Notes: generated by a model not told the origin, from the letters alone. 64,000 nt of DNA from Minisyncoccota bacterium (GCA_041651055.1 JBAZJW010000001.1:20737-84736); one strand, 5' to 3'; shown: positions 16,809 through 63,476, counted from the first letter of the stretch. Numbers and translations are program-made.

Positions 16809-17786
16809 ATGTTAATCGATCACGTATCATTACAAGTAAAAGCTGGCAAGGGCGGTGACGGTGTAGTCCGTTGGCGTCGTGAAAAAGGAATACCATTCGG
16901 TGGACCTGCTGGCGGAGACGGAGGAAAAGGCGGAGACGTCTACTTTCGAGTTGTTCGTGATATCCAAGCGCTCTCGGTGTATAAGCACAAAAAAGAATGG
17001 GATGCCCCAGAAGGTGAAGCTGGTCAAAAGAGAAGTATGCATGGAAGTGGTGCTGAAGATATGTACTTACAGGTTCCTCTAGGATCTGTTGTTTACAATC
17101 GTGAATATGATAAGAAGTATGAATTCATGGAAGAGGGAGACTTCTTGGTGCTTCGTGGTGGTAAAGGTGGACTGGGAAATGAAAATTTCAAATCATCAAC
17201 GAACCGTGCACCAGAAGAATTTACAAAAGGAGAGCTTGGCGAATTCGGAACCTTTGATGTTGAATTGAAATTGATCGCAGATGTCGGACTCATTGGACTT
17301 CCTAATGCTGGCAAGTCATCACTTTTAAATGCACTCACTCGCGCTGGTGCGAAGATCGGAGACTATCCATTCACCACGCTTGAACCAAACCTCGGTGTGT
17401 ATTTCGGCTACGTACTCGCAGATATTCCAGGACTTATCGAAGGTGCGAGTGATGGAAAAGGACTCGGTCACAAATTCCTTCGTCACATTACACGTACACG
17501 TATTCTCGTACACCTCGTATCATGTGAAAATGAAGATGTCGCGAAGACATACACAACCATTCGTGAAGAGTTGGGTAAATATGATCCAGAACTTTTGAAA
17601 CGTGAGGAAGTTGTTGTACTTTCAAAGACAGATACTGTGGATGCCGACACTGTGAAGACAAAATTGAAAGCTCTAGAAAAAGCTTCAAAAAATAAAAATG
17701 TTATTACACTTTCCCTCTACGAAGACACTACGATTAAAGCATTCGGAGATTCGTTGATGAAAATATTGGAAACGCCTAATAGTTAG
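16809..17786 (+). CDS. obg: GTPase Obg/CgtA
   Basis: Obg fold N-terminus with GGDGGKGGDV, G1-G4 GTPase motifs. Confidence 0.93.
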   Translation: MLIDHVSLQVKAGKGGDGVVRWRREKGIPFGGPAGGDGGKGGDVYFRVVRDIQALSVYKHKKEWDAPEGEAGQKRSMHGSGAEDMYLQVPLGSVVYNREYDKKYEFMEEGDFLVLRGGKGGLGNENFKSSTNRAPEEFTKGELGEFGTFDVELKLIADVGLIGLPNAGKSSLLNALTRAGAKIGDYPFTTLEPNLGVYFGYVLADIPGLIEGASDGKGLGHKFLRHITRTRILVHLVSCENEDVAKTYTTIREELGKYDPELLKREEVVVLSKTDTVDADTVKTKLKALEKASKNKNVITLSLYEDTTIKAFGDSLMKILETPNS

Positions 17787-17886
17787 GGTGTTATTCGTTA
17801 GGACGTTAGGGGTTGAATACAAGAAACAAGAAGCGCGCCGTAGGCACGCTTCTTGTTTTTCGTCCTAACGAATAACGTCTAACGGG
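17781..17886. repeat. CGTTAGG-type heptamer arrays in inverted orientation around the obg terminator hairpin (17825-17860)
   Basis: gttattcgttaggacgttaggg ... terminator ... cgtcctaacgaataacgtctaacgg. Confidence 0.7.
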
Positions 17887-17891
17887 GTGCC

Positions 17892-18485
17892 TTATTTTTT
17901 CAAAAGATTCACCGTTTCTCCCGGAGTGAGTAGTCCTACATGTCTAGCGTCTAATCCCATACAGAGCGTGAGTGTGTAGGCTACAGAATTTGAGTTTTCG
18001 GTATCACCGTTCATGTTCACACCAAACGGTGGATAGGGAATTTTCTTTTCGTTCAATGGGTCTTTACATGCGAGAGCATTTGTCCAATGATTTTTCATGT
18101 CAGCATCTTTTCCTTCTGTAAGAATGATTCCTGGAAATGTTTTTTCGGCGAGATAGTAACGTGGACTATCGAATTCCCACACTTGAAGTGTGTCTGTTGC
18201 ACGTGTTCCAACGTATTTCCATTGTCCTGTTGTTGTGTTTGTTGCTAGACCGTGTAACTCCTTAACGATATCTCCATTTTGATCTTTGAGGGCCAAATAA
18301 TTATGTCCTGCAAATCCAAAAAAGAGCGGATGTTGCATGAGCTGTATGCTCCAGTCACCCGGAACTGGTTGTGGTATAGGTCGCACAATGGGGTTGTGAG
18401 TAATCGCATATGCGCATAACAAAAAAACAACACTCCATCCGAGATCTTTAATGAATTGATTAGTGAACAATCTTTTCCAGAACAT
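17892..18485 (-). CDS. Hypothetical membrane-anchored/secreted protein
   Basis: N-terminal TM helix; no recognisable family. Confidence 0.55.
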   Translation of the reverse strand: MFWKRLFTNQFIKDLGWSVVFLLCAYAITHNPIVRPIPQPVPGDWSIQLMQHPLFFGFAGHNYLALKDQNGDIVKELHGLATNTTTGQWKYVGTRATDTLQVWEFDSPRYYLAEKTFPGIILTEGKDADMKNHWTNALACKDPLNEKKIPYPPFGVNMNGDTENSNSVAYTLTLCMGLDARHVGLLTPGETVNLLKK

Positions 18486-18510
18486 GAGGTGTAGTATACA
18501 ATAATTCGTC

Positions 18511-18662
18511 AGTTAGGAGTTAGTCGTTAGGACGTTAGGAAATACAAAGAGCGGCCACGATTTATCCTGAGCTTGTCGAAGGAAGTGGCCGCTCTTTGTA
18601 TTTTGTATTCAGTCCCTAACGTCCTAACGAATAACGCCCTAACTATTAAGTGCTCCTAACTG
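18511..18662. repeat. CGTTAGG-type inverted heptamer arrays flanking a terminator (18541-18602); right arm overlaps the gatB stop
   Basis: agttaggagttagtcgttaggacgttagg ... cctaacgtcctaacgaataacgccctaact. Confidence 0.7.
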
Positions 18663-22139: not shown

Positions 22140-22162
22140 GTTTGATATACTACATGGTAATT

Positions 22163-22252
22163 AATCATTAGTCGACACTAGTCATTCGTTGTTCGTTAGG
22201 GCGTTAGTCGTTAGGTAATAACGAATAACGAATAACGAAGAACGCCCTAACG
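22163..22252. repeat. CGTTAGG / AACGAAT heptamer arrays in inverted orientation (no internal terminator)
   Basis: cgttagggcgttagtcgttagg taataacgaataacgaataacgaagaacgccctaacg. Confidence 0.7.
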
Positions 22253-22257
22253 AATTT

Positions 22258-24070: not shown

Positions 24071-24153
24071 GGAGACGAGAATACGGGGTCGCGAAACTAC
24101 TTCGATCCGCCAGCTGGCGGAGAGGTAGTTTTGTGACCGAGTCCCACCTCCGA
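24071..24153 (+). repeat. tRNA-linked hairpin element copy E1 (conserved GAATAcGGGGTCGCG ... GGTAGTTTTGTGACCGAGTCCC; 3' arm resembles the tRNA-Leu(CAA) T-arm)
   Basis: Shares arms with E2, E3 and E6; loop carries its own palindrome tccgcc-agct-ggcgga. Confidence 0.6.
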
Positions 24154-25170: not shown

Positions 25171-25243
25171 TGTTTAATCTTCTTAAAAACCAAAAAATAA
25201 TTTATCTTCCTCTTTACTATAAACTGTCGACTCTAGACTATCT

Positions 25244-26416: not shown

Positions 26417-26420
26417 GATA

Positions 26421-26528
26421 CGTTAGGGGCTAACAGTTAGGGGTTAGGAGTAGATGCGAAAAAGACAAGAGGCGCGCCTCTTGTCTTGTATTAACCCACA
26501 ACTCCTAACTGCCAACCCCTAACGGCCC
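26421..26528. repeat. GTTAGGG-type inverted heptamer arrays around terminator 26462-26490
   Basis: cgttaggggctaacagttaggggttaggag ... actcctaactgccaacccctaacggccc. Confidence 0.7.
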
Positions 26529-26531
26529 TCA

Positions 26532-28805: not shown

Positions 28806-28984
28806 GGTCTTTCTCCTTTTGCTCATTAAAGAGCTTTGGTTAACCGGAATACACCGGCACTTGTATCATCCTATTATTTTGTAGATATAAAGTCAAAAAA
28901 GTAATAGATAGTTATGTTTATGGAAAATACGAAAGAAACAGAGCCTTCGCCAGCAGGCGGAGGCTCTGTTTCTTGTGTTGTATG

Positions 28985-29008
28985 AACTAATTACCAATAA
29001 CTAATTAC
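28985..29008. repeat. TAATTAG-type heptamer array (aactaattaccaataactaattac) just past the topA stop
   Basis: Near-identical to the 62840-62870 inverted-repeat arm. Confidence 0.6.
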
Positions 29009-31215: not shown

Positions 31216-31345
31216 GGGTAGTAATTGGTCATTAGTTATTAGTAATTAGTTACGGAAATATGTTCGCATTCCATGTATAGTATCACATCACTGGGTGGAG
31301 GTTCATGTATTTACTAATGACTAATACCTATAAACTAATGACTAC
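31216..31345. repeat. TAATTAG-type heptamer arrays in inverted orientation spanning the topA-dprA intergenic region
   Basis: gggtagtaattggtcattagttattagtaattagtt ... aactaatgactaatacctataaactaatgactaccc. Confidence 0.65.
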
Positions 31346-31346
31346 C

Positions 31347-35794: not shown

Positions 35795-35866
35795 TGGGAT
35801 TTGGTCACAGAACCTGTTCTTCACTTTGTTCAGAACAGATGGTTCCGCGACCCCTATTCAAATCCC
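35795..35866 (-). repeat. tRNA-linked hairpin element copy E6 (downstream of tRNA-Cys; GGGATTTG-AATAGGGGTCGCGG...GTGACCAAATCCCAC)
   Basis: Same architecture as E2/E3; 3' arm CAAATCCCAC equals the tRNA-Cys T-arm 3' strand. Confidence 0.6.
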
Positions 35867-35892
35867 AACAGAAGCCAAGCAGTTGGCTTCTT

Positions 35893-36379: not shown

Positions 36380-36473
36380 GAGCACATGAACTGCTTCATG
36401 TGCGTAAGGGATCGAATAGGGGTCGCGAAACTACTTCGAGCAAAGCGAGGTAGTTTTGTGACCGATCCCTACC
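36380..36473 (+). repeat. tRNA-linked hairpin element copy E2 with leading 9-bp hairpin GCACATGAA-ctg-TTCATGTGC; outer stem GGGATCG/CGATCCC, bulge AATAGG, 17-bp inner stem with 3 G:U pairs
   Basis: 3' arm CGATCCCTAC equals the tRNA-Lys T-arm; near-identical leader plus element recurs at 52562-52667. Confidence 0.65.
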
Positions 36474-37227: not shown

Positions 37228-37309
37228 GCCCGGGTGATGGAATGGTAGACATAGAGGACTTAAAATCCTCAGCGCGTTTGCGCGTGCGGGTTCGAGTCCC
37301 GCCCTGGGC
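37228..37309 (+). tRNA. tRNA-Leu(TAA), no encoded CCA; integration target
   Basis: Acceptor gcccggg/cctgggc, anticodon loop ctTAAaa, hairpin variable arm, T-loop ttcgagt. Confidence 0.85.
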
Positions 37310-38867
37310 ACAAGACAGGACAATCTGGTACGAAAGTATCAGATTTTCCTTTTTTAGCAGTACTTTTACGTGGTTCGAAATTATTTTGACTATCTATTTT
37401 CTGTTGAACCCTTTGAGCGAGTACTTCAACTGGCCTCTTTAATAATGACAACACTTTTTCATCTTTAAGAGTGATGTTCGAAAAAATATGAGATAAAAGA
37501 GTTCTTCTTTCTTCGGGTGTTCTTTTCTTATAGATTTCCTCCGCTCGAAAAGCAAGATCCAAAATGTTTAACCATATTTCAAAATACCTAGTTTCTATAT
37601 TTTTAATTTTTGATATTTGCTCCTGAATACCTTGCTGCTCTTTGTTAATTTCGGTCTGTCTCTTTTCCCATGTGTCGGTACTAATCTTCTGGTCTAATCT
37701 ATCGTTATACAGTATGTCTAGACGGCTCTGTAATTGAATGTAGCGAGCGTTTAGTGTCTTGAGGGTGTTTTCTTTGTATTCTATTTCTTGAATATGGTTT
37801 GCCTTAATTTTCTCCTTTATACGTTCGGCTTCTTCAGGTTTTATATTCTTAAAGAAATTAAAAACTCCTAAAAGTTGCTCTTCAATTTTTGATTCTGGGG
37901 TATATGGTTTCTGTGTACACTCGTTATAGTGATTACAATGATAGTAGACAATACCCTTCTGTATTTCTGCGGTAATCGTACCATTGCACTCGCCACACTT
38001 CATCATTTTCTTAAATTGAAAATTATGTTTACTGTATGAAGGAGTAAGTTTTCCTCTTTTCACTGATTGTGCTTTATCAAATAGTTCTTTTGTAATTATC
38101 GGCTCATGTTTTGCTTCTGGGTAAAGTACATCATTCCAGACCATCGCACCATAATAAAAAGGTTCATTGAGAATCCTCTCTATTCTACTTTTTGCTAACT
38201 TTCTACCTGCACGAGTTCTGAAGCCCTCTTTATATAATTGCTGACGTACTGCTTCCATTGAGTGATTACTACTAGAATACAACTCAAATGCTTTCTTTAT
38301 AAAAGGAGCAACCGATGTATCGATGACATGTGTCTTGTGGCCTTTATCTCCAACTGTTTGGTAACCAAGAGGGGATCTGGTTGGTAACCATCCTTGAGCA
38401 AGTTTCTCTGCTTGCCCCTTGCGTACCTCTTCAGAAAGATTTGAAATATATTTCTTGGCTAGGACAATTTCAATATCCCAACGAAACTTTTCATCAGATT
38501 TAGCGTTTTTATGAATAATAAGGTTCTGTTTAACAAAGTGTATTTTTCTTTGATCATCTTCATCGATCCAATCGTTTGCAACTACTGCTTCTTTCAAATT
38601 ACGCGTAAGGCGGTCTACTTTTTCTACTATAAGGTTTTTAACCTTGTTTTTATCTATATATTCCATCATTTCAGCAAAAACTTTTCTCTGTTTTGTTCCG
38701 CTTGCGCTTTCAGCGACAGAGAATACTTTGTTAACTGTAAAACCCTTGCGATTCGCATATTCTTTTAATAACTTCTCTTGTGAAGGTAGTGAGTACCCGG
38801 TCTCTTCTTGTTCCTTTGTTGAAACTCTACAATAGAGAACTGAGTTATTAGTATCAATGTTTTTCAT
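37269..38867 (-). CDS. Large serine recombinase (integrase); C-terminus overlaps the tRNA-Leu(TAA) 3' end
   Basis: Resolvase-type N-terminal domain with catalytic [10 protein letters not shown], recombinase and zinc-ribbon regions, coiled-coil tail. Confidence 0.85.
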
Positions 38868-38914
38868 ATATTTATTTTATCATTTTTAGTTTGATTGTCG
38901 TACAACGATATTCT

Positions 38915-39508
38915 CTAAAATGGAATGTCGTCTAGGTTTACATTTCCAAAGGATTGGTCTACTAGTTCTGTTTTTAAGGTTTTTCCAATTTCTTTATATC
39001 TTTTTCTTGCTTCATCAGGAGTTAATTCTTTTGCTGGCGCTATGTTGGTTTTCTTACATTGGAATATTTTTATATTAGTATTCTTAATATTAGTATTCTT
39101 ACTGTGACTTTCTGTCACTTGGTATTTGTTGTTTTTGTCACTTGGTGATGCTTTTTTTGTCACACGGCCAGGTGACTTTTTGTCACCTGGTTGATACCAA
39201 GAATCTCTATTTGTAAGAACGTAACCATAATTAGCCCAATGGCCACCCCGTCTTCTTTTTTCCATAATGACTAGATTGTATTTTTCTAAAAGATGTATAT
39301 TTCTAATTATTGTTCGTTTTGATATATTAAGTTCTTGAGCAAGGAGGTCATGTGTTGGCCATGCGTAACTTTCAAGATTAGAGTGCCTTTTTAAGCAAAT
39401 GTAAATTGCTAATGCCACATGACCAATTTTAGGTGAATATTCGTCAATTAAAATATTATCAACTGAAAACCACTGACCACTTTTAGTATTGTTGTTCAAC
39501 TCTTCCAT
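38915..39508 (-). CDS. Winged-HTH DNA-binding protein (putative replication initiator or regulator of the element)
   Basis: ELNISKRTIIRNIHLLEKYNLV HTH; basic C-terminus. Confidence 0.5.
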   Translation of the reverse strand: MEELNNNTKSGQWFSVDNILIDEYSPKIGHVALAIYICLKRHSNLESYAWPTHDLLAQELNISKRTIIRNIHLLEKYNLVIMEKRRRGGHWANYGYVLTNRDSWYQPGDKKSPGRVTKKASPSDKNNKYQVTESHSKNTNIKNTNIKIFQCKKTNIAPAKELTPDEARKRYKEIGKTLKTELVDQSFGNVNLDDIPF

Positions 39509-39512
39509 GGTT

Positions 39513-39704
39513 TCATTTTGAGAAATTAGAACCCAATTCCGACACCCTAGGAGTTGAAACTAAGATGTCGGAATTGACCTCCGATTTTTCTTTTTTATGA
39601 TCCTCATAATCAAAACGAGCAAGTAAATCAAAAAAGGACGACAAGTTATCTATGTCTTCATTAGTTAGGTTCAACTCTTTTTGTAATATCAACTCTTTAC
39701 TCAT
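39513..39704 (-). CDS. Hypothetical small acidic protein
   Basis: 63-aa ORF 5 nt upstream of the next gene (operon). Confidence 0.4.
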   Translation of the reverse strand: MSKELILQKELNLTNEDIDNLSSFFDLLARFDYEDHKKEKSEVNSDILVSTPRVSELGSNFSK

Positions 39705-39811
39705 TACATAAGTAAAACAAATAAAAAATCTTCGGTAACTTATGCTTCTCTTATGATAAAAAGAAAATAAAACCCTGATTTATAAGGATTTATTTTGCTT
39801 GATCAAGAGTA

Positions 39812-40557
39812 TTATTTTAATACTTTTACTGTAAATGATTTATTTAAGAAATACCCAACTTTATTGTTAGAATCTATAACATTTTCTTTTATTCCTAGCC
39901 GTCTTTTTGCAATAATATTAAATTGAGAAATACCAACAGACAGATTCCCTTCTTTTTGGTCTAATTTAGACATGAGTTCCTCTCCGCTTAGTGGTCCATG
40001 AGTATGGAGAAGTTCAAGATATTGTTCTCTTTTTCCTTTAACAGGGTAAACCTTTTTGTTTAATTCATTTTTTAAACCTATATTCGAGAGAGTAAGGATA
40101 ACTTTTTTATTATTTTTAACTGGCCGTAACTTATTTTTTAATTCTAGGTTAACCACTCTTAAGAAAGATACTTTTTCTTTCACAGATGAAATAATGTTTT
40201 GTAACATCCTTATTCCAGATTCATCTGCATATATTAAACCATCTTCATCTTTAAAGAAAGTGACTATCGGGACAGTGTTATTCAATCTTTGTTCTAATGA
40301 GTTAAGAGTATGAACACGTACCATATCTGGTTCTGAAAGAAAATCATCAGCACTCTTTTCATTTACCTTTTTAAGTACTTTATATGTATCTAAAACCCAG
40401 TTACCATAGAAACGTTCAGCAATCTCAAAGTTTTTCGTAGTTGGATTGTTGATTGCGTTTTGGGTTATGTTTATTACTAATTTAGAATCAGATATATAAC
40501 TGTTTATTACATCTATACTTGAAGATTTTATTTTATTTTTTGAGGTCAACTCTCTCA
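39812..40557 (-). CDS. Hypothetical protein with C-terminal OmpR-type winged-helix DNA-binding domain
   Basis: Start MRELTSKNK; C-terminal ...LSGEELMSKL...VGISQFNIIAKRRLG resembles trans_reg_C. Confidence 0.5.
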
Positions 40558-40593
40558 TTACCACATTGTAACAAAAATATTGTATAATTAACT

Positions 40594-40745
40594 TGCTGAC
40601 AAACCAATATCGTTGCCCGAACAAGACCACAGGTCTTTGTTGTTGATTGTGTGCTGAATAAGCACCATATGTTTGAGGAAACATAATCAACAACCTTCGG
40701 GTTATTGGTTTGTCAGCACCTCTTACTGTGGTGCTTATTTTGTTT
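40594..40745 (+). promoter_or_regulatory. Structured ~150-nt leader for 40753-41052: TGtTATAAT promoter at 40581-40589, nested stems (16-bp TGCTGACAAACCAATA/TATTGGTTTGTCAGCA outer stem), an alternative 11-bp pairing, and a terminator-like hairpin AGCACC-9-GGTGCT plus U-run (40715-40745)
   Basis: Mutually exclusive pairings of attenuator/riboswitch type directly upstream of the start codon. Confidence 0.45.
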
Positions 40746-40752
40746 TATAAAA

Positions 40753-41052
40753 ATGAAAAAACTAATCTTTAAATGCTCAAATGTTTACTGCTCTTTTGAA
40801 GAAATCCTAAAATCAGATACAACAGCAGTAAAAGTTGGAGACGTATGTTTTATATGTAATGAAGGGAAGATTTTTTCTGGAGAATTGTACAAGAAAATAG
40901 ACCCTTTGAAATATCCAACACTATCAAAGTATCCGCCAGAGGTAGTTTGGGCGACAGTATCTAACTTAATAGAGAGATACCCTGATATGACAGATAATCA
41001 GTGTCTAACTAATTTAGAAATGGACTTTGCCCAGAAAGAACAAATGGCCTAA
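40753..41052 (+). CDS. Small Cys-rich protein (putative zinc ribbon)
   Basis: Start MKKLIFKCSNVYCS...CFIC; 4 Cys in CxxxxC...CxxC spacing. Confidence 0.45.
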   Translation: MKKLIFKCSNVYCSFEEILKSDTTAVKVGDVCFICNEGKIFSGELYKKIDPLKYPTLSKYPPEVVWATVSNLIERYPDMTDNQCLTNLEMDFAQKEQMA

Positions 41053-41190
41053 TATGAACAAGTTTTTTAACTATATTATAAATAAATGGGAACGTATATA
41101 TTCGTTTTTTGACCATTGGTGGTGGAAAAATGGAGAAGATGTAGTGCTGTTTGCTTTTGTTGTATTTGTTATATATATACTAGGAAAATA

Positions 41191-41595
41191 ATGACTGAAA
41201 TTAACCCCCACAAAATCCTCATAGGAATAAGAGCAGAACAAATTAAAAATGGAGATCCTGACTTTATTGTTAATTTACTCACTGATTTTGAAAAAGATGA
41301 TACTGAAAAGATTAAATCCTTACGCGGTAGTGTTTCTCTTATGTTCCCCAAGGTTAGTGAGTACCCCTTTGCCTTTCTGATGTGGTCTATGGGTTTGTAT
41401 ACTAAATATCCTAATTTTGCCTATTTCCTTGATAAGGAAAGTGGAGATTTTATCGTAGAAAGTATGTTGTACGATATGAAATCACCACCAGCAGATAAAG
41501 GTAAGTTATTAAACAATCTTTACAGCAAGGCAGTTGATTTCGGAATTAAATATGGTTACTCAAAAGAAGAGATGGCTACTTACTTTTCCCACTGA
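41191..41595 (+). CDS. Hypothetical protein
   Basis: Start MTEINPHK with AGGAAAATA RBS. Confidence 0.45.
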   Translation: MTEINPHKILIGIRAEQIKNGDPDFIVNLLTDFEKDDTEKIKSLRGSVSLMFPKVSEYPFAFLMWSMGLYTKYPNFAYFLDKESGDFIVESMLYDMKSPPADKGKLLNNLYSKAVDFGIKYGYSKEEMATYFSH

Positions 41596-41942
41596 AAACT
41601 CATTACGTTATTATCCTCCTCTTCAATACTATCTAATAGGTCGCCCATTCCAATAGAAGTATTTTTAACTCCAATCTCTTGTGCAGGTTTTCCAAAAGCA
41701 CGATTAAGAAGTAACTCAATAACCCGAGGATCTGGTTTTCCTCCATTACCAGTAAGTGCAACCTTAATTTGTGCGTCAATAAGTTTATCTGCCTTCTCAA
41801 GAATCTTTGCCTGTATTTGCTTGTAAACCTCTTCCTTAAGCAGTGTTTCTTTTCGTTTTCCGTGTTTACCTATTTTTGGAGACAAAAGCGCCCTCTTAAG
41901 GGCTTTCTTCTGCACTTCTGGTTTTGTTGCAAAGGTATTCAT
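41580..41942 (-). CDS. Hypothetical small basic protein, co-oriented downstream of the HerA-like ATPase
   Basis: 120-aa ORF 55 nt after the ATPase stop. Confidence 0.45.
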   Translation of the reverse strand: MNTFATKPEVQKKALKRALLSPKIGKHGKRKETLLKEEVYKQIQAKILEKADKLIDAQIKVALTGNGGKPDPRVIELLLNRAFGKPAQEIGVKNTSIGMGDLLDSIEEEDNNVMSFQWEK

Positions 41943-41996
41943 TACTGTTTAAGTATACAACAAGTAAAATGAAACCTATTAAAACGTATTGAAACC

Positions 41997-44189
41997 TTAA
42001 AAAGAAGAACCTTTTTCAACCTCTACAACTGCTGTGGTAATAGGAACAACTTTAACATTAAGAGCAACACTCGCATCATACTTTGTCTTATCAAACTCTC
42101 TCTTTGCAAGAAGAGGTCTTTCGCTCTTCACTGCCTTACCGTGCGCAACAAACTCTAAAAACTTAAGATTAGGAATTGCTTTAATGTGTTCGGAACTGTA
42201 TACACTACCTAAATACTCTAAACTAGTTTTATCTACCAAACTATGTGTGAAGTAAGTGTTACATTGAGACAAAACTGTCTTGCTAACTAGTGCTGTACGC
42301 TGAGACACAATGAGTAATCCAACGCCATATTTACGACCCTGTAAAGCAATCTGCCCGATTCTTCCAACGACCCACTGTGTTTCAGAGTCAAAACCAGAAC
42401 TGTATACTTCGGGAATTATTGTGTGTGCCTCTTCCAGAACAATCATTATCTGTTTTGCTTTGCGATTATTCCGTGCCCAGTTCATTATCGCTGATAGATA
42501 GAGTTCTGTTGTCCTTAATGTTGCTTTGGTGTTAGTTATTTCAGCAAGTTCAAATATACCAAGTAGGTCGTCTTTACTAGTTAGAAAATCTTCAATCTGA
42601 TTAGTTACTTGTGGTTTTATTCCATCTATAAATGTTTTCAATTCTCTCTTCTCATTTGGTGCACCGTAAGTGCCTATTTCTACTGCAAATAGATGTGTTT
42701 CTAAATCTGAACCTTGAGTAATAGATAAACCGATGGACACTGGATCTAGGTCTGCGAGACGCTTCTTATATTCCCCAGTGAAATCAACGCAAAATACTTT
42801 TCTGCCACGAGCAACTGCTTCGCGAATAATGTCTAGCACAAGTTCTGTTTTTCCTGTTCCTGTTACACCCAATACTGCTGTATGGTACTCAATTAAATCA
42901 TCTAACACGACAGGAATACCAAAGGAAGTAGAGGGGACTTTACCTATCATAAACTCATTCTCCTTGAGGTTTTGTGTATGAACTTCCGTTTCTGATGTGA
43001 GGAATAGAGGTTGATTCATTTCTGGAAGCCAAGAATACTTTTCAAAACCTCTATTTGGATCATAGCAACCCAATTGAGCAGCAGAAACTATATGCACTCC
43101 ATAAGGATTTTGATGAAAACTTTCTTCGTTAGTACTTGCATCTAGTATTTGATAATAAACCTTCTTTCCACGAATACAAGCAAACACGACAACTCCTTCC
43201 TCCAACTTAATACCACTTACGGATTGAAACTTTATATTAGAGATTGAAGACCCTTCAACTGTTATTCCCACAACTTTACTGTTTCTTTCCTCTCCACTGA
43301 GTATGACGCCTAATGTTTCTGCAAGACCTTCTTCGTTAATACTGTAAACTTCTCCTGTTTTAGTAGATTCATATTTCTTTCCGTCAGTTATTTCACAACA
43401 TAAACCTGTTCCTATCACTTGTTCATTTTGTATTTGTGAAAATAAAGGCAAAACGTAAGTTATCTTCCCACCAGAAAGATGCGCAATATGAACATATTCA
43501 GAAGTCCAATTATCTATATTTTCTTCAAGAGTAATTCTAACCAAGTTCGGAGCGTCAATTCGTAAAACAGAGCCAGTTAATTCTAGTACAGATTTTGTTG
43601 TCTTTGTTCCGTTAAGATAAAGGATTACTTGAATAATATGTTCCACTGGACGTGCCACAACCATAAAAGTCCAAAACCCAAGAATTGTAACCATCCATTC
43701 TGGTTCACTTTGGTAAAATCCAAGAGCACTTATAAGGACTGCAGGTGTAAAAAGTATCTCTCCTTTGCCAAAAACACCGCTCAGGCGATAAGTTACTTTC
43801 CCAAGTTGGGTATTTTGTTGAAAAGCAGATACCAGAGCACATGTAGCAACAAAAATTGCTATTACTATTGTAATGGTATTAGCAGTTTGGAGGCCGAAAC
43901 TAAAATCGGACACATTAGTAAAATCTAAAGGGGCGAGAAGAAGTACCAAAGAAATAGCAGTTGTCAAAGAGTCACGTGGAGGTAAAAAGAATGGTGCTGA
44001 AACTAAATGAAGTAACCAGTAGGCCATAGCCGCCAAAAGCCAAACACTCGCACCAGATCCAGTTGGAAAGAAACTTCCTGTTGCAAAATAATAAATTACC
44101 CACGCTATTAAAACATTTATTGCTAAAACTGTGATTCTCCATGTTTGGCTCAAAGGTTCTATGGATTTTATTTCTTGTTCTTTTGCCAT
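41997..44189 (-). CDS. Membrane-anchored HerA/FtsK-like (DUF87-type) P-loop ATPase
   Basis: About 200-aa N-terminal polytopic domain, then Walker A GVTGTGKTEL and Walker B IVLEEAH. Confidence 0.7.
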   Translation of the reverse strand: MAKEQEIKSIEPLSQTWRITVLAINVLIAWVIYYFATGSFFPTGSGASVWLLAAMAYWLLHLVSAPFFLPPRDSLTTAISLVLLLAPLDFTNVSDFSFGLQTANTITIVIAIFVATCALVSAFQQNTQLGKVTYRLSGVFGKGEILFTPAVLISALGFYQSEPEWMVTILGFWTFMVVARPVEHIIQVILYLNGTKTTKSVLELTGSVLRIDAPNLVRITLEENIDNWTSEYVHIAHLSGGKITYVLPLFSQIQNEQVIGTGLCCEITDGKKYESTKTGEVYSINEEGLAETLGVILSGEERNSKVVGITVEGSSISNIKFQSVSGIKLEEGVVVFACIRGKKVYYQILDASTNEESFHQNPYGVHIVSAAQLGCYDPNRGFEKYSWLPEMNQPLFLTSETEVHTQNLKENEFMIGKVPSTSFGIPVVLDDLIEYHTAVLGVTGTGKTELVLDIIREAVARGRKVFCVDFTGEYKKRLADLDPVSIGLSITQGSDLETHLFAVEIGTYGAPNEKRELKTFIDGIKPQVTNQIEDFLTSKDDLLGIFELAEITNTKATLRTTELYLSAIMNWARNNRKAKQIMIVLEEAHTIIPEVYSSGFDSETQWVVGRIGQIALQGRKYGVGLLIVSQRTALVSKTVLSQCNTYFTHSLVDKTSLEYLGSVYSSEHIKAIPNLKFLEFVAHGKAVKSERPLLAKREFDKTKYDASVALNVKVVPITTAVVEVEKGSSF

Positions 44190-44641
44190 GTTAAATACCC
44201 CAATAATAGCATAATAACCAACCTTTTAATTGTCTGTTTTTTTATTAAAAACAGCATCAAATAAAATATCAAAAGCCCTGTCCATTCTCCTTTGGAGTTC
44301 TTCCGGTGATAGCGATACCTTCTTGTACCTTATTTTTAGTTTTTTACTTTTTTGTTTTGTCATAAAATACCCCAACTTTTGGGTTTGAGTTCTCTAACAG
44401 GAAAATGTGTGTACTTTGGCCTCTCGCTCGTCCTAGACGATTTTGTGGCCAAATGAATCGTTGGATATTTAGTGTCTGACTATAAAAGAAAGACACTTAC
44501 TGCAACATTAAGTATATACCAAATAAAATCTGCTTAAAGTTAGAAGTTATTAAATCCTCTAATGTGAGATAAAGTGTTATAATTAAAATTATATTAAGCG
44601 TGAAAAGTTGAGATATCTTTCTTACATTATAAATAAAAAGT

Positions 44642-47032
44642 ATGGCTGTTAAAAAATCGCAATTGTATAGTTCTCTTTGGAAGAGTTGTGACGAACTCCG
44701 TGGTGGTATGGATGCCTCACAGTATAAGGATTATGTTCTTGTTCTCCTCTTCATAAAATACATCTCTGACAGATATGTAGGTGTTCCTTTCCCTCCTATT
44801 GTTGTGCCTAAAGGTGCAAGTTTCAAGGATATGGTTGCTCTTAAGGGCTCAACAACCATTGGAGATGACATCAACAAAAACATCATACAAAAAATAGAAG
44901 AAGCAAACCCTACACTGGGTAAAATTGCTGTTGATTTCAATGATCCTGTAAAACTTGGTAGTGGAAAAGATATGGTTGATAGATTAACCAAACTTATTGC
45001 TATTTTTGAAAACCAAAATCTTGATTTTAGTACAAACCGTGCCGAGGGGGACGATATTCTCGGAGATGCTTATGAATACCTTATGCGACACTTTGCATCA
45101 GAGAGTGGTAAGAGTAAAGGTCAGTTCTATACTCCTGCTGAGGTTAGTAAGATAATCGCAAAAGTAATAGGTATTTCAAATACTAAAGTACTTACTCCGA
45201 CTGTATACGATCCTGCGTGTGGATCTGGTTCTCTTCTTCTAAAAATTAGAGATGAGACAGATAAAAATGTTACCTTACGTGGCCAGGAAATGGATAATGC
45301 AACTGCCGCACTTGCTCGTATGAATATGATACTCCATAACAACCCGACATCTATCATTGAAAGAGAGAACACTCTTTCAACACCACTCTTCAAAGAAAAT
45401 AACCAACTGATGACATTTGATTTTGTTGTTGCTAACCCGCCGTTCTCTACAAAATCGTGGACTAATGGCGTTAAGGTTGGAGATGATGATACTTATGGAA
45501 GATTCACTGGATTTGGCACACCTCCGGAGAAGAATGGCGACTATGCTTTTCTTCTTCACATAGTTCGCTCACTTAAAGAGAAAGGTAAAGGTGCTGTTAT
45601 TCTCCCTCACGGTGTACTTTTTCGTGGTGGTAGTGAGGCGTCTATTCGTACTAACTTAATTCGTCGTGGATATATTAAGGGAGTTATCGGGCTACCTGTA
45701 AACCTCTTTTACGGTACAGGTATTCCTGCGTGTATTATTGTGATAGATAAAGAAAACGCAGACACTCGTAAAGGTGTCTTTATGGTTGACGCAAGTAAAG
45801 GATTTATAAAAGACGGCAACAAAAACCGACTCCGTAACCAAGACCTTCATAAAGTAGTAGATATATTCAATAAGCAACTAGAGATAGAAAAGTATTCTCG
45901 TATGGTAAGTATGGTGGAGATTGAAAAGAATGAATACAACCTCAATATCCCTCGCTATATAGATAGTCAGGAGGCAGAGGATATGCAGGATATAGAGGCA
46001 CATCTACAAGGTGGTATACCAACTAAAGATATAGAAGACCTAGGTAATTACTGGGGTGTTTACCCAACCCTCAAATCCTCCCTATTCACCGACAGTAAAA
46101 GAAAAGGATATAGCAACCTAAAAATTAAACAAGAGGAAATTAAGAATACTATTTTTTTACACCCAGAGTTCACTTCTTATTCCAAAACAATGGAAGCAAC
46201 TTTTTCTACTTGGAAAATAAAGAATAGTTCTATCTTAAAAAAGATAACTAAAGGAGTGAAACCAAAGGAAATAATTCCGACAATATCAGAAGATCTACTC
46301 TCTGCTTTTAGTAATACCAATCTTATAGATAAGTATGATATTTATGAACACCTTATGGTTTATTGGTCAGAGACAATGCAAGACGATATGTATCTTATTG
46401 CAGACGATGGATGGAAAGTAACTCTCCAAATAATAGATGCAAAGAAAGGCACAACAGAGTGCGACCTTGTTCCAAAGCATCTTATTATTAACCGTTACTT
46501 TGCAAAAGAAAAGCAAACTCTTGATGATTTACAAACTAAACTAGACACATCAACACGAGAAATAGAAGAAGTAGTTGAAGAGTACAGTGATGACAGTGAA
46601 AAAGGGTATTTTACTGATTTTGAAAAAGTAAGTAAGACAACAGTAACTTCAAGAGTTAAGCAGATGAAGAACAGTGTTCAAGATAAAGAAGAACTTATGG
46701 TAATGGAAAAGTACCTTTCACTTGTTGAAGAAGAGTCAAGAGCAAAAAAAGAAATTAAAGATGTGGAGATTTCTCTTGAATTGCAAGTTGTCGCAAAGTA
46801 TAAAACTCTAACAGAGGAAGAAATCAAGGTTCTAGTAGTAGATGACAAATGGTTAGCAACGCTTGAACAAGCAATTCACAGTGAAATGGATCGTATTAGT
46901 CAGCGCCTTACAGGGCGTATTAAGGAACTCGCAGAGAGATATGCAACACCTCTCCCCCTTCTTGTTACAGACACGGAGGTACTTACCAGTAAGGTAGATG
47001 GACATCTTAAAACAATGGGATTTGTATGGTAG
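44642..47032 (+). CDS. hsdM: Type I restriction-modification N6-adenine DNA methyltransferase subunit (long form with coiled-coil C-terminal extension)
   Basis: DPACGSGSLL (motif I) and NPPF (motif IV); 796 aa. Confidence 0.9.
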   Translation: MAVKKSQLYSSLWKSCDELRGGMDASQYKDYVLVLLFIKYISDRYVGVPFPPIVVPKGASFKDMVALKGSTTIGDDINKNIIQKIEEANPTLGKIAVDFNDPVKLGSGKDMVDRLTKLIAIFENQNLDFSTNRAEGDDILGDAYEYLMRHFASESGKSKGQFYTPAEVSKIIAKVIGISNTKVLTPTVYDPACGSGSLLLKIRDETDKNVTLRGQEMDNATAALARMNMILHNNPTSIIERENTLSTPLFKENNQLMTFDFVVANPPFSTKSWTNGVKVGDDDTYGRFTGFGTPPEKNGDYAFLLHIVRSLKEKGKGAVILPHGVLFRGGSEASIRTNLIRRGYIKGVIGLPVNLFYGTGIPACIIVIDKENADTRKGVFMVDASKGFIKDGNKNRLRNQDLHKVVDIFNKQLEIEKYSRMVSMVEIEKNEYNLNIPRYIDSQEAEDMQDIEAHLQGGIPTKDIEDLGNYWGVYPTLKSSLFTDSKRKGYSNLKIKQEEIKNTIFLHPEFTSYSKTMEATFSTWKIKNSSILKKITKGVKPKEIIPTISEDLLSAFSNTNLIDKYDIYEHLMVYWSETMQDDMYLIADDGWKVTLQIIDAKKGTTECDLVPKHLIINRYFAKEKQTLDDLQTKLDTSTREIEEVVEEYSDDSEKGYFTDFEKVSKTTVTSRVKQMKNSVQDKEELMVMEKYLSLVEEESRAKKEIKDVEISLELQVVAKYKTLTEEEIKVLVVDDKWLATLEQAIHSEMDRISQRLTGRIKELAERYATPLPLLVTDTEVLTSKVDGHLKTMGFVW

Positions 47033-48321
47033 AAATAACTATTAAAAAAGGATATAAGCAAACTGAAATTGGGGTAATTCCGGAAGATTGGGATATTGTC
47101 TCATTTAAAAAAATTGCTGATAAGAATAAAAAATGGAGTATAACAGGGGGCCCTTTTGGTTCAAACTTAAAGAAATCAGATTACACCAATGACGGTGTTC
47201 AAATTATACAATTACAAAACATAGGAGATGGTAGATTTATTGACGATTACCAAATTTTTACTTCAAAAGATAAAGCCGATGAACTTTTGAGTTGCAACAT
47301 TTATCCAAATGAGATAATTCTTTCAAAGATGGGAGACCCTGTTGCTAGGGCTTGTTTTGTTCCTGAAAAAAACGAAAGATATCTTATGGCGTCAGACGGT
47401 ATCAGATTAGTTGTAAATGAAAATGAGTTTTCTAAAAAATTTATTCACGATTATATTAATTCTGCCTATTTTAGAAACAGAGCATTTGAGGTAAGTATGG
47501 GCTCAACTAGGTTGAGAATAGGGTTACCGAAATTAAAAGGACTTAGTGTGGTTAAGCCACCAAAAGAAGAACAGGATCTTATTGCCACAATCCTCTCCGA
47601 TACAGATGCGCTCATTAACCACTTGGACAAACTAATCACAAAAAAGAAAGCAATTAAACAAGGAACAATACAACAACTTCTTACTGGTAAAAAACGCCTC
47701 CCTGGATTTAGTGGTGAGTGGGAAGAAAATAAATTGGTGAAGATAGCAGATTTTTTTAAAGGTAGAGGTCTTTCTAAAAGCAAAATTGAAAATAACGGCC
47801 AATATTCTTGTATTTTGTATGGCGAGTTATTTACAACATACGCTCGGGTAATAGATGAAGTAAAAAGTAAAACAAACTTCACTGAGGGATTAACCTCAAC
47901 AGAAGGAGATATTCTTATGCCTGGATCAACGACTACTGTTGGGATTGATCTAGCCGTAGCGTCCGTTTTAAATAAAAATGATGTACTGATTGGTGGTGAT
48001 GTAATTGTAATTAGGAAGAAAAAGCAAGAGTTCTACAACCCTAATTTTCTTGCAAATTATTTAACTCACGTCTCAAAATATAAAATAGCCGGAATTACAC
48101 AGGGTATAACAATAATTCATTTGCACGGTAGTAGGTTGCAGGAAATAATGGTAAAGATACCAAAAGACGTGAGCGAACAAACTGCCATTGCTACAATTCT
48201 CTCTGATATGGACAAAGAAATTGAACTCATAGAACATAAACGAGATAAATATATAATGCTAAAAAATGGTATGATGCAACAATTACTAACAGGCGCTATT
48301 CGTATATATGGAAACAAATAA
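47026..48321 (+). CDS. hsdS: Type I restriction-modification specificity subunit
   Basis: Two target-recognition-domain halves with conserved spacer; overlaps hsdM and hsdR. Confidence 0.8.
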   Translation: MVEITIKKGYKQTEIGVIPEDWDIVSFKKIADKNKKWSITGGPFGSNLKKSDYTNDGVQIIQLQNIGDGRFIDDYQIFTSKDKADELLSCNIYPNEIILSKMGDPVARACFVPEKNERYLMASDGIRLVVNENEFSKKFIHDYINSAYFRNRAFEVSMGSTRLRIGLPKLKGLSVVKPPKEEQDLIATILSDTDALINHLDKLITKKKAIKQGTIQQLLTGKKRLPGFSGEWEENKLVKIADFFKGRGLSKSKIENNGQYSCILYGELFTTYARVIDEVKSKTNFTEGLTSTEGDILMPGSTTTVGIDLAVASVLNKNDVLIGGDVIVIRKKKQEFYNPNFLANYLTHVSKYKIAGITQGITIIHLHGSRLQEIMVKIPKDVSEQTAIATILSDMDKEIELIEHKRDKYIMLKNGMMQQLLTGAIRIYGNK

Positions 48322-60091: not shown

Positions 60092-60147
60092 AGAAGGAGT
60101 GACCACTTCCTTCGACAAGCTCAGGATAAATCGTGGTCACTCCTTCT
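60092..60147. terminator. 15-bp hairpin (agaaggagtgaccac ... gtggtcactccttct)
   Basis: Perfect inverted repeat between infB and the 60174 gene. Confidence 0.5.
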
Positions 60148-60173
60148 TATCTGTATTTTCTATAAACTATAAA

Positions 60174-60656: not shown

Positions 60657-61091
60657 GTGTGATGAGTGTAGCAGAAAAGTGATTGTCGCGGCAGGTGTGT
60701 ATAACCTTTCCTCGTATATCTTTTCTCTGACAAAAAGATATGATAGAATTATTACAGGTGCTCATTTGGAGTCTATCGCGGCTAAGGGCCGCACGGACTG
60801 AAAAATGTTTTCTATGGGTCAACTGACTACATTATATGTACTCATTGATTTTCCATAGAAAACATTTTTTTATTTGGTATGATAGAGTATCTCTTAAGCA
60901 GTGTGATCGTACATTGTGTATCTTCGCTCTTTAACAAGCAAAATATATTGCAGGTAGAGAACGCCGCACGGCGACTCCCTAAGCATTGCAGACTCAGGTC
61001 TGTCCTTCGTAAGATGCTTTTGAAAATACTGCACCGAAAGCCCGCACGCGAAAGCCTCTGTGGGTTTTCCTTTTTATGATAGAGTAAAGAC

Positions 61092-62426
61092 ATGAATATG
61101 TTTTCTTTTTTCACACCTAAACAAGAACGGGTTTATTTGGATAACGCAGGGGCGACACCTCTTTCTGCTAGATCACAAACAGCGCTCACAGAATCTCTTT
61201 CTTTATATGGTAATCCATCAGGGATTCATAAAGAAGGGACGCAAGCTGGACTGCTGCTCGATAAGGCACGCGTACTCTGTGCGAATGTGCTCAATGCTCA
61301 TGCGTATGAGATTTATTTTGTAGGAACTGGAACAGAATCCTGCAATCTCGCAGTTTTGGGTACGTATGAGGGGTATAAGAAACAAGAAGTAAGAAGTATG
61401 GAGCAAGAAACTCCTGACGAAGAACGAAGAACGAAGAACGAGTTGCCTCATGTAATTGTTTCTACCATTGAACATCCAGCGGTACTGGAGCCAATTAGAA
61501 AACTCGAGAGAGAAAAAAAGATTCGTGTTACGTACCTTCCTGTTTATGAAAATGGCATTGTAAAAGTAAAGGATATACGTGATGTATTATGTGAAGAAAC
61601 TATTTTGGTTTCTGTTATGTATGCGAATAATGAAATAGGAACTATACAGCCAGTAAAAGAAATTGGTCGCGCCCTTGAAGAATGGAAAAAGGAACAGAAT
61701 CGCACGCATACCGCGTATCCATATTTTCATATCGATGCATGTCAGGCGGCGAATTATTGTAATCTCGATGTGGTACGGTTGCGCGCTCATTTGATGACGG
61801 TAAATAGTAGCAAGGTCTACGGTCCGAAAGGCGTAGCACTTTTATATAAACGTGAAGGAGTGAAGATTGAAGCACTTACGCACGGTGGTGGGCAAGAACG
61901 AGCCCTACGGAGTGGCACAGAGTCTGCGCCACTTGCGTACGCATTCGGTGTCGCGCTCAAAGAATCTCATGATATGAAAGAAGTGGAGTCTGTTCGACTA
62001 CGCATGCTTCGCGATGCATGTAAAAAAGAATTACAGCAAGCACTTCCAGATATTACATTTTATGGAGCGTGGGATGAGGGAAGACTTCAGACAACAGACG
62101 ACAGACAACAGAAGAGTCCAACAACACACGAAGAACGAAGAACAAAGAACGAGTTCAGACTACCAAATAACATTAATTGCCGGGTGCCGGGAATATCGTC
62201 GGAGGAAATGATTCTCAGGTTGGATGCGAAAGGGTTCGCAGTCTCACACAAGAGCGCATGTGCTTCTTCTGAAACAGACGGTAGTTATGTGGTGCAAGCA
62301 CTCGGTGCGTCAGAAGAAGAGTCTCTCGAGAATGTGCGCATTACACTTGGCCGTGCTACTTCAATGCAAGACCTGCACAGATTGGTGGAAGCAATGAAAG
62401 AGATTGTAATTAAATACAGGAAGTAA
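61092..62426 (+). CDS. Cysteine desulfurase (IscS/NifS family, class V aminotransferase) with two in-frame heptamer-repeat insertions
   Basis: PLP-fold motifs (…SSKVYGPKGVALLY, HKSACASS); extra EERRTKNE-containing loops. Confidence 0.85.
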   Translation: MNMFSFFTPKQERVYLDNAGATPLSARSQTALTESLSLYGNPSGIHKEGTQAGLLLDKARVLCANVLNAHAYEIYFVGTGTESCNLAVLGTYEGYKKQEVRSMEQETPDEERRTKNELPHVIVSTIEHPAVLEPIRKLEREKKIRVTYLPVYENGIVKVKDIRDVLCEETILVSVMYANNEIGTIQPVKEIGRALEEWKKEQNRTHTAYPYFHIDACQAANYCNLDVVRLRAHLMTVNSSKVYGPKGVALLYKREGVKIEALTHGGGQERALRSGTESAPLAYAFGVALKESHDMKEVESVRLRMLRDACKKELQQALPDITFYGAWDEGRLQTTDDRQQKSPTTHEERRTKNEFRLPNNINCRVPGISSEEMILRLDAKGFAVSHKSACASSETDGSYVVQALGASEEESLENVRITLGRATSMQDLHRLVEAMKEIVIKYRK

Positions 62427-62870
62427 TTAGTTATTAGTAATTGGTAATTAGTTGAAATACAAACAAATTAAAGTGGTATACTTTTCTTATGAAGACATTT
62501 AAAGATTTAGATGTTTGGCGGAGGTCTGTTTCTTTTGCAACTGATATTTATAGCGTAACTAAAACTTTTCCTAAAGAAGAAACGTATGGTTTAGTTTCTC
62601 AGTTACGAAGAGCTGGAGTTTCGATTGCTTCAAATATTGCAGAAGATAGCAAGAAAGGGAAGAAAGAATTTTCTCATTTTATTAAAATCTCACAAGGTTC
62701 TGGTGCAGAAATAGAAACTCAATTAATAATTGCTAAAAATTTAAATTATATAAAAGAGAATGATTTTGATAGACTAATTACTGAATTAGAATCAATTATG
62801 AGAATGCTTACAAATCTCTATAAATCTGTAGCTGAGGTTAACTAATTACCAATTACTAATAACTAATTAC
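62423..62870. repeat. Cassette bounded by perfect 31-bp inverted repeats GTAATTAGTTATTAGTAATTGGTAATTAGTT (62423-62453 and 62840-62870) enclosing a four-helix-bundle gene
   Basis: Exact reverse-complement arms built of TAATTAG heptamers; arms overlap the iscS and 4HB stop codons. Confidence 0.8.
62489..62845 (+). CDS. Four-helix-bundle protein of the 23S rRNA intervening-sequence / Avd-like family
   Basis: FKDLDVWRRS...FPKEE.YGLVSQLRRAGVSIASNIAE family signature. Confidence 0.75.
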   Translation: MKTFKDLDVWRRSVSFATDIYSVTKTFPKEETYGLVSQLRRAGVSIASNIAEDSKKGKKEFSHFIKISQGSGAEIETQLIIAKNLNYIKENDFDRLITELESIMRMLTNLYKSVAEVN

Positions 62871-62879
62871 TTTTAAAAT

Positions 62880-63440
62880 ATGTATACACCAAAAGATTTT
62901 TCATCGTTACTCGGGCTTGCAGGTATGAGTGATGCCATGCTTACCAATCACTTCACCTTGTATCAAGGATACGTGACCAATACCAACAAACTCGCAGACC
63001 TTTTGAAAGACAAAGAAGCGGGGACACCAGAGTACGCAGAACTTCACCGTCGCTTTGGATGGGAATGGAATGGTATGCGACTTCATGAGCTTTACTTTGG
63101 AAACCTCGTGAAAGGAGGAGTGAATTTAAGTGATAGAATTTTGAAACAAAAAATTGAAAGCACATGGGGGTCTGTCGAAAACTGGCAAAAAGAATTCGTT
63201 GGCATGGCCGCTATGCGTGGTATCGGATGGGTTATTCTTTCTCATGATAAGCGTGAAGGAAAACTTTTCAATGTATGGGTGAACGAACACGATGCCGGAC
63301 ATCTAGCAGGTGCGACACTGCTTCTTGTGATGGATGTGTTTGAACATGCGTACATGACGGATTACGGAATAAAGCGCGCGGATTATATCAATGCGTTTAT
63401 GTCAGCAATCGATTGGCACGCAGTGGAGGAAAGACTATAA
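62880..63440 (+). CDS. Fe/Mn superoxide dismutase
   Basis: N-terminal helical hairpin with His ligands, C-terminal D..EHAY motif. Confidence 0.85.
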   Translation: MYTPKDFSSLLGLAGMSDAMLTNHFTLYQGYVTNTNKLADLLKDKEAGTPEYAELHRRFGWEWNGMRLHELYFGNLVKGGVNLSDRILKQKIESTWGSVENWQKEFVGMAAMRGIGWVILSHDKREGKLFNVWVNEHDAGHLAGATLLLVMDVFEHAYMTDYGIKRADYINAFMSAIDWHAVEERL

Positions 63441-63476
63441 AATAGTTAGGGGTTAACAGTTAGGAGTTAGGAGTTG
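63441..63476. repeat. GTTAGG-type heptamer array (aatagttaggggttaacagttaggagttaggagtt)
   Basis: Same family as the 17781 / 18511 / 26421 arrays. Confidence 0.6.

Follow-up and report, generated by a model that had tools for sequence, protein, structure and literature searches.

The genome of a Minisyncoccota bacterium carries, within a stretch of 64,000 nt (GCA_041651055.1 JBAZJW010000001.1:20737-84736; hereafter the window, with positions counted from its first letter), short tandem arrays of 7-nt units, a number of them in inverted pairs at the ends of genes, and the question raised by this locus is what these heptamer arrays are and what they may do. An earlier note on the same DNA described two families, of CGTTAGG-type and TAATTAG-type units, and inspection of the sequence found its arrays present at all eight loci, labelled here A1–A5 (CGTTAGG-type) and B1–B3 (TAATTAG-type). 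The feature constant among the copies is their position directly past a stop codon. Related copies supply last codons and stops, are absent from the corresponding junctions of relatives, have arms that are predicted to form stems, and are associated with genes for a small four-helix-bundle (4HB) protein. We put at roughly one in two the chance that these are dispersed palindromic elements in mRNA space, similar to the intervening sequences (IVSs) of 23S rRNA, whose stem would be cut by RNase III in read-through transcripts.

Architecture and dispersal of the heptamer elements

Read 5' to 3', a full element comprises a G/T-rich array of 7-nt, and sometimes 8-nt, units, a core, and a complementary C/A-rich array. 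This polarity, with a G-rich 5' arm and a C-rich 3' arm on whichever strand, holds in all six inverted pairs in the window, and the two families may well be the arms of one class of dispersed composite palindromic element. In A1, A2 and A4 the core is a bidirectional intrinsic terminator. The 5' arm of A1 (17781-17812; G/T-rich units AGTTAGG-GTGTTAT-TCGTTAGG-ACGTTAGG) holds the obg stop codon TAG (17784-17786) in its first unit; the hairpin (17819-17863) lies between obg (+) and a 197-aa open reading frame (ORF; -), and the CCTAACG-type 3' arm (17862-17886) pairs with the 5' arm, including a 16-bp perfect core. A2 has a left arm that is G-type on the + strand (18511-18540), a 19-bp terminator stem (18540-18603) with a 26-nt loop (18559-18584), and a right arm (18614-18662) whose reverse complement supplies the last eight gatB codons (QLGALNS*) and continues past the gatB stop. 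In A4, the 5' arm (26421-26449) begins 5 nt past the parB stop, the hairpin (26455-26492) lies between parB (+) and relA (-), and the reverse complement of the 3' arm (26500-26527) follows the relA stop; a range previously extended to 28528 was a coordinate error, as the element ends at 26527 and is followed by relA and another gene.

The remaining loci have other cores or a single arm. A3 (22157-22254), in the divergent miaA/glutaredoxin spacer, consists of a G-type array (22157-22216) abutting a C-type array, (AATAACG)n (22217-22254), with no terminator between these back-to-back arms. In B2 the left arm (31216-31250) reaches up to the start codon of topA, and the dprA stop is followed at once by the right arm (31308-31346) in reverse complement; the bracketed 60 nt are a spacer and not a terminator. 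B1, formerly read as one array at 62423-62870, is really two 33-nt arms (62421-62872) around an unnoticed gene: the 5' arm (62421-62453; GTAATTA-GTTATTA-GTAATTG-GTAATTA) holds the iscS stop TAA (62424-62426) in its first unit, the core is a 118-aa 4HB gene (62489-62845, +), and the 3' arm (62840-62872), which contains the 4HB stop codon, is complementary to the 5' arm at 33/33 nt. B3 (28933-29008) is a terminator hairpin (28933-28974) beside a lone arm (28985-29008) whose reverse complement begins with the topA stop, and A5 is a lone G-type arm (63441-63476, +) directly past the sod stop, with a degenerate hairpin. The pairing of direct and inverse arrays proposed in the earlier note therefore extends to A3, where the arms stand back to back, and to B2, where they flank a non-terminator, and fails at the single arms of B3 and A5; the bracketing of a terminator, put forward for most loci, is confined to three of the eight (those starting at 17781, 18511 and 26421).

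An arm begins 0-8 nt past the stop codon of ten genes (obg, gatB, parB, relA, the 197-aa ORF, sod, iscS, topA, dprA and the 4HB gene), and nine of these ten arms are G-type in the sense strand. The genes that neighbour arrays are obg, gatB, miaA, parB, relA/spoT, topA, dprA, iscS/nifS and the Fe/Mn superoxide dismutase gene. The gatB of the window is 70-76% identical to that of metagenome-assembled genomes labelled Candidatus Nomurabacteria or Paceibacterota, in keeping with an origin in the Candidate Phyla Radiation. Both obg and gatB finish with the same terminal codons, AAT AGT TAG (N-S-stop), encoded by the element, and iscS and topA share the end AAG TAA, with TAA inside the first GTAATTA unit; the overlap with coding ends suggested previously is thus real for gatB, and for obg as well, and is limited to the stop codon in topA and iscS. 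Because the units hold TAG or TAA on both strands, three units put a stop in every frame.

The copies resemble one another well beyond the heptamer itself. A1 and the reverse complement of A2 are identical at 51 of 59 nt, a stretch that takes in the terminal codons, a run of four identically ordered units, the linker TGAATACAA and one half of the terminator stem; A4 and A5 agree at about 50 of 61 nt, including the parB and sod stop codons, and the family-B arms have a common unit order at three loci. Since unit order, linker and stem are all shared, these copies are related by descent, which bears out the earlier idea of a small, non-autonomous, dispersed repeat. The accompanying suggestion that the repeat homes to terminators does not survive, as the family-A terminator is part of the repeated unit and other copies have none. 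The possibility that B2 (31216-31346) is a deletion derivative of B1 was rejected, their interiors being dissimilar (the best local alignment scored 15, whereas shuffled sequence averaged 17.8).

In related genomes, elements are present or absent at corresponding gene junctions. The loci L003-L014 keep the same order of genes, and in them the gatB/197-aa ORF junction spans 15-18 nt (L006, L008), against 153 nt in the window; the 197-aa ORF/obg junction 3 nt (L011), against 105 nt; the relA/parB junction 4 nt (L011) or an overlap (L012), against 115 nt; and the dprA/topA junction 19 nt (L011, L012), against 131 nt. Past gatB, L003 and L004 have inverted CAGACNN/CTGACTN arrays around a similar terminator, and L010 has inverted arrays of AAGTCTG units, again around a similar terminator. 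Compact and element-bearing junctions among relatives indicate that the elements are gained and lost, and that lineages differ in their units but retain the architecture. In another sample, short-read contigs of this strain break within the repeats, L002 ending at ~18560 in the 26-nt loop and L165 starting at ~62843 in the B1 right arm, as expected for multi-copy sequence. L165, from a second sample, is 100% identical to the window over 10.6 kb and so gives no information on strain polymorphism. An assembly artefact was rejected, as the same architecture occurs in independent assemblies and finished genomes.

The periodicity is specific to 7 nt. At a threshold of at least 15 of 21 self-matches, 17 arrays were found at lag 7, against 0.55 in Markov shuffles and 0-4 elsewhere across lags 4-13; at 18 or more of 21, lag 7 alone scores, with five arrays against none expected. 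Tandem Repeats Finder agrees on period 7, with 4.4 copies in each B1 arm. Non-coding DNA, which is 12.6% of the sequence, holds 16 of 24 arrays. As the earlier note anticipated, the outer arms pair in predicted folds and lengthen the terminators, giving stems of 25-45 bp with free energies of -53 to -74 kcal/mol (z -7 to -12): -53.5 kcal/mol (z -9.4) for 17778-17890, -74 kcal/mol (z -10.9) for 18508-18657, and -57 to -60 kcal/mol (z -7.3 to -7.6) for 26417-26531. The predicted fold at 22185-22257 has -31 kcal/mol (z -6.0).

The window holds more than the two families first described. Further arrays lie at 1796, 3312, 11215-11350, 15460, 16722, 25212, 28031 and 60149, and within the iscS coding sequence at 61371 and 62079, and further units include AACTATA, ATCTAAA, AGCTTCT, GACTATC, AAAGTTN, CAGACAA and ACGAAGA. 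About 130 nt of C-type heptamers (CTAAAGT, AACTATA x3.6, ATCTAAA; 11215-11350, +) separate a terminator from the dnaG start codon, and an inverted AAAGTTN/NAACTTT pair (16722-16808) occupies the divergent spacer upstream of obg. In iscS/nifS (61092-62426), two in-frame blocks on the + strand, at 61371-61448 (TAAGAAG, ACGAAGA x3.6) and 62079-62156 (CAGACAA, ACGAAGA; ~30 inserted residues), encode the hydrophilic insertions ..KQEVRSMEQETPDEERRTKNE.. and ..RLQTTDDRQQKSPTTHEERRTKNE.., and both fall in gaps of the alignment to solved cysteine desulfurase structures. C/A-rich arrays reach the start codons of dnaG (11316-11355), parB (25212-25243) and topA (31216-31235) with no Shine-Dalgarno-like sequence, and the same holds for clpB (L164, 12170-12225).

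Several smaller features were observed alongside the arrays. Two terminator hairpins with different stems (..GCGGCCAC and ..GTGACCAC) have the same 26-nt loop, GATTTATCCTGAGCTTGTCGAAGGAA, at 18559-18584 (+) and 60107-60132 (-); this sequence, which has the look of a very small insertion in the loop of a hairpin, was absent from the ~170 other loci searched. Terminator stems share the sequence AATACAAAGAGCGG.. / ATACAAAAGCGCG.. at 14762, 15419 and 18544 in the window, at ~14990 and 15790 in L164, and in the relatives L003, L004 and L009, from which the terminators themselves look like a repeat family across the clade. A hairpin-like repeat, GGGGTCGCGAAACTACTTCGA...GGTAGTTTTGTGACCGA, stands near tRNA genes at 24085-24140 and 36419-36465, with a weaker third copy at 35842-35884, and has no Rfam match. 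A low-GC island of the window (~37300-55050, GC 33-37%) has no heptamer arrays and was probably acquired recently. It runs between two tRNA-Leu genes, one (taa) at 37228-37311 and the other (tag) at 55048-55130, and contains three adjacent large ORFs (44642-51376; 796, 431 and 1022 aa) that, from their arrangement, may encode a type I restriction-modification system.

Four-helix-bundle genes between heptamer arms

The 118-aa protein encoded in B1 matches TIGR02436 with 123 bits against a cutoff of 24 (E 5e-36); the identical protein P0001 (S23p, the 23S rRNA IVS protein) is assigned to the Pfam families PF05635 and PF22296, and the closest solved structure is XCC0516 (PDB 2GSC, E 1.5e-20). B1 lies between iscS and sod and not in 23S rRNA, the insertion site of the IVSs, and an Rfam scan of the window found five tRNAs only, and no rRNA.

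This combination of a 4HB gene with heptamer arms recurs far outside the window. A metagenome set of 80 loci with 4HB genes 39-59% identical was assembled, and 76 of the genes were scored for inverted flanks by local alignment of the 130-nt upstream flank with the reverse complement of the downstream flank, at a cut-off of at least 16. Inverted flanks were found at 33 of the 76 (43%), against 0.9% of 1558 control ORFs and 0.75% of small ORFs. Among 150 4HB flanks, periodicity was at lag 7 in 47 and at lag 8 in 12, any other lag being seen at most once. The density of arrays was 2.5 per kb in the 200 nt next to 4HB genes, compared with 0.12 per kb in the remaining sequence. The metagenomic arms are almost always heptamer arrays, and their units are very diverse; genes sharing a contig also carry different units (L141; L112/L115). 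Among 80 Paceibacteria loci, the two other 4HB genes (L030, L069) both have inverted 7/8-mer flanks, again of different units. At 24 of 29 4HB loci the 5' arm has more G than C, a polarity common to the window pairs and to the published pairs of Xanthomonas (PMC4692102). Finished plasmids of cultured cyanobacteria have heptamer flanks at five of six 4HB genes, inverted at three of these five. The system had been taken to be lineage-specific; the same architecture, with the G-rich arm 5', at 4HB/S23p genes of diverse metagenomes and cultured cyanobacteria, and its publication for Xanthomonas (PMC4692102) and the Coxiella 23S IVS (PMC4990558), speak otherwise.

A sequence-specific pairing of protein and unit found no support, as at 55-70% protein identity the mean unit distance is 2.9, against ~3.3 for unrelated pairs. 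Units match only where the 4HB proteins are more than ~70% identical, probably because such loci are orthologous.

In four metagenomic loci the 4HB cassette, heptamer arms included, lies inside a large host ORF (L110, 2484-2920; L104, 2951-3381; L118, ~2600-3100; L133, ~2050-2560). One host is a leucyl-tRNA synthetase (leuS, L110), interrupted in its editing domain, another a BadF/BcrA-type activase, and two are methyltransferase-like proteins. The host frame, +2 relative to that of the 4HB gene, has no stops across the nested cassettes, against a mean of eight in other 4HB genes, and the arms encode Gly/Ser-rich and Pro/Ser-rich linkers. An open alternative frame was rejected as a general property of 4HB genes, occurring in only four of 83. 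In cyanobacteria, 4HB genes lie in operon spacers in L166 (Nostoc edaphicum pNe_5), L167 (Calothrix) and L170 (Pseudanabaena), between ribonucleotide reductase beta and alpha genes, between two toxin-secretion genes, and between cas6 and cas4; the L170 flanks are 15 direct AAAAGCT units with no inverted pair.

Tentatively, 4HB (S23p/Avd-like, PF05635) genes and inverted heptamer arrays could form one widespread genetic unit, in which the gene-bearing palindrome would be autonomous, the 4HB protein a trans-acting partner that binds, propagates or maintains the arrays, and ORF-less arrays non-autonomous derivatives. The derivatives would then include cyanobacterial STRRs, Xanthomonas GGGAATC pairs, the terminator-wrapping elements of the window, ORF-less rRNA IVSs and in-frame protein insertions. 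Inverted heptamer pairs (in Xanthomonas) and heptamer-bearing S23p stems cut by RNase III (in the Coxiella IVS) have already been described, and the general 4HB link is the part worth following; no paper describing it was found in an incomplete literature search, so that this is absence of evidence only. The link is statistically strong and checkable, with inverted flanks at 43% against 0.9% and a period of 7 almost exclusively, and it joins two long-unexplained features that are both present in one small genome of the Candidate Phyla Radiation. For annotation, the elements matter as sources of stop codons, of altered C-termini and of low-complexity loops within enzymes (such as iscS), and they also break short-read assemblies.

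Weighing the readings

If the elements are IVS-like palindromes in mRNA space, new copies would arise by a copy-paste or conversion process, and RNA polymerase reading through a copy would allow the arms to fold into a long double-stranded stem. RNase III may then cut this stem, as has been shown for IVS stems, and the cleavage would uncouple or insulate neighbouring transcripts and leave hairpin-protected ends, while the stop-codon-rich units would end translation in all three frames. By analogy with the IVSs, a role in RNA processing or stability is plausible.

A number of observations weigh against this reading. The central terminator of A1, A2 and A4 should halt most transcripts before the 3' arm, which would restrict the long stem to transcripts that read through. 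A promoter belonging to the 4HB gene itself also seems to lie between the arms: an extended -10-like TGGTATACT lies at 62474-62482, only 6 nt before the ATG, which would make the 4HB transcript leaderless. No consistent direct target-site duplication was apparent by eye at the boundaries of A1, A2, A4 and B1, and the genes with Pfam annotation in the flanking regions included no transposase and no other enzyme of mobility. A strict test of array-to-hairpin proximity was not significant (19%, against 28% at random), with a detector that misses the family-A arms of mixed 7/8-nt units; a banded self-alignment detector of 6-9-nt units was too strict and still missed them, and no statistical terminator association is therefore claimed. 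The analysis covered 83 kb of a genome of ~0.56-0.78 Mb. Finally, the units diverge fast relative to the 4HB protein, and the arrays could therefore evolve in place.

This last point leads to the strongest of the alternatives, a serious rival though still an unlikely one, namely that the arrays are simple-sequence repeats formed in place by slippage and by intramolecular template switching across the hairpin (quasipalindrome correction), and are neutral, immobile and functionless. In its favour, heptamers are the commonest long simple-sequence repeat in bacteria (Mrazek 2007, cited in PMC4679880), one unit distinguishes Coxiella strains (PMC4990558), turnover of units is fast, with relatives carrying different ones at a given junction, and many window arrays are single or degenerate. 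Slippage alone does not account for unlinked loci that share multi-unit order together with a non-repeat linker, stem and stop-codon context, however, and it leaves unexplained both the 20-fold concentration of arrays around one gene family and the constant polarity of the G-rich 5' arm (24/29 loci).

It is rather improbable, though again a serious rival, that the arrays are instead RNA or DNA sites at which a protein recognising the repeats would control how translation ends or begins, or what becomes of the transcript, with G-type arrays in 3' untranslated regions and C-type arrays in 5' untranslated regions, and with an inverted symmetry that is secondary, mostly a result of convergent genes each needing their own array. 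Arms that start at the stop codons of ten genes, and C-type arrays that abut the dnaG, parB, clpB and topA starts with no Shine-Dalgarno sequence, would fit such sites. Inverted pairs also lie between tandem and divergent genes (A2, A3, B2), however; the arm-to-arm match (33/33, 16/16) exceeds what a shared motif would need, and the wide differences in unit within the genome and among relatives ill fit one sequence-specific binder. That the pairs are DNA-level structures (cruciforms or non-B DNA of another kind) with effects on supercoiling, on replication or on the organisation of the nucleoid, as proposed for REP/BIME or G-quadruplex-forming repeats, is very improbable: the symmetry is the same on both strands and G-quadruplex formation has been published for the Xanthomonas GGGAATC repeats (PMC4692102), but the window units (GTTAGG, TAATTAG) have no regular runs of three or more G, the pairs have no positional relation to replication features, and their close tie to stop codons suggests a part in expression and not in DNA structure.

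Of these readings, the IVS-like one is preferred.

Comparison with known repeats

Heptamer tandem repeats have been known since ~1990 (the cyanobacterial STRRs, and later those of Xanthomonas and Beggiatoaceae), and the S23p ORFs of rRNA intervening sequences since ~1993; to our knowledge, neither has an explanation. Several classes of small palindromic element offer a wider frame: Correia/NEMIS elements of Neisseria, ERIC, REP/BIME and the Rickettsia palindromic elements are ~100-150 nt long, have inverted ends at gene boundaries, and form hairpins in co-transcribed RNA; the Correia hairpins are substrates of RNase III and can serve as terminators. Rickettsia palindromic elements also insert in frame into genes, as the arrays in iscS do. 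The arms of all these elements are unique sequence and not tandem heptamers, their transposase partners are known or suspected (RAYT for REP), and we know of none that carries a 4HB gene. REP/BIME with RAYT are imperfect palindromes of 20-40 nt with a conserved GTAG/CGTC head and a RAYT gene. No RAYT was noticed in the window, where no search was aimed at it, and each arm there is a series of heptamers and not one palindrome. The window elements have the terminal inverted repeats of miniature inverted-repeat transposable elements; the sole cargo seen between such arms is the 4HB gene, and no cognate transposase-bearing element was seen in the annotated flanking regions.

The TAACTGA repeats of marine Beggiatoaceae, cyanobacteria and Bacteroidetes (MacGregor 2015, PMC4679880) are, as here, intergenic heptamers with stops inside the unit, which often end a few bases before a start codon, occasionally lie within ORFs and have a patchy phylogeny. 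The arrays that abut the dnaG, parB, topA and clpB starts resemble those found upstream of Beggiatoaceae start codons. Nearly all TAACTGA repeats are direct and single, with one inverted pair in 170 (PMC4679880), whereas the window is dominated by inverted pairs and stop-proximal arms.

Closer in arrangement are the (GGGAATC)n arrays of Xanthomonas and the STRR / GGGGA(C/T)T repeats of Nostoc, which like the window arrays are tandem 7-nt units and lie mostly between genes; ~90% of these published arrays are intergenic (Rehm et al. 2015, PMC4692102). Xanthomonas has ~185 intergenic arrays, with 70-75 convergent inverted pairs at a mean of 28 nt from the upstream ORF, and in both systems, as here, most arrays form convergent inverted pairs with the G-rich strand inward, near the upstream ORF end, and are not conserved at the same genes between related species (PMC4692102). 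The supplementary table of that paper lists an array overlapping the start of XCC0516, with no mention there of S23p; this array-overlapped gene encodes the closest solved homologue of the window 4HB protein. The window units differ in being AT-rich, stop-bearing and unable to form regular G-quadruplexes, and the copies in sharing a composite structure with a terminator.

The nearest match to B1 is the S23p-type IVS of Coxiella burnetii and Leptospira, in which a PF05635/TIGR02436 ORF likewise sits in the loop of a terminal-inverted-repeat stem (PMC4990558). In Coxiella, GACAGAT heptamers of strain-variable copy number precede the S23p ORF, strains differing by one unit, and the IVS ends in a 28-bp inverted-repeat stem at which RNase III cuts (PMC4990558). 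Heptamers thus lie in or beside the stem in Coxiella and in the arms of B1, and the sizes agree, at ~430-450 nt for the IVS and 452 nt for B1. The IVS, however, occupies helix 25 or 45 of 23S rRNA and B1 a protein-coding operon; most window copies have a terminator in place of the ORF, and RNase III cleavage, demonstrated for the IVS, is for the window elements proposed by analogy. Taken together, these likenesses make it quite conceivable that the window elements are the intergenic, mRNA counterpart both of the S23p-type 23S IVS and of the inverted heptamers of Xanthomonas and cyanobacteria.

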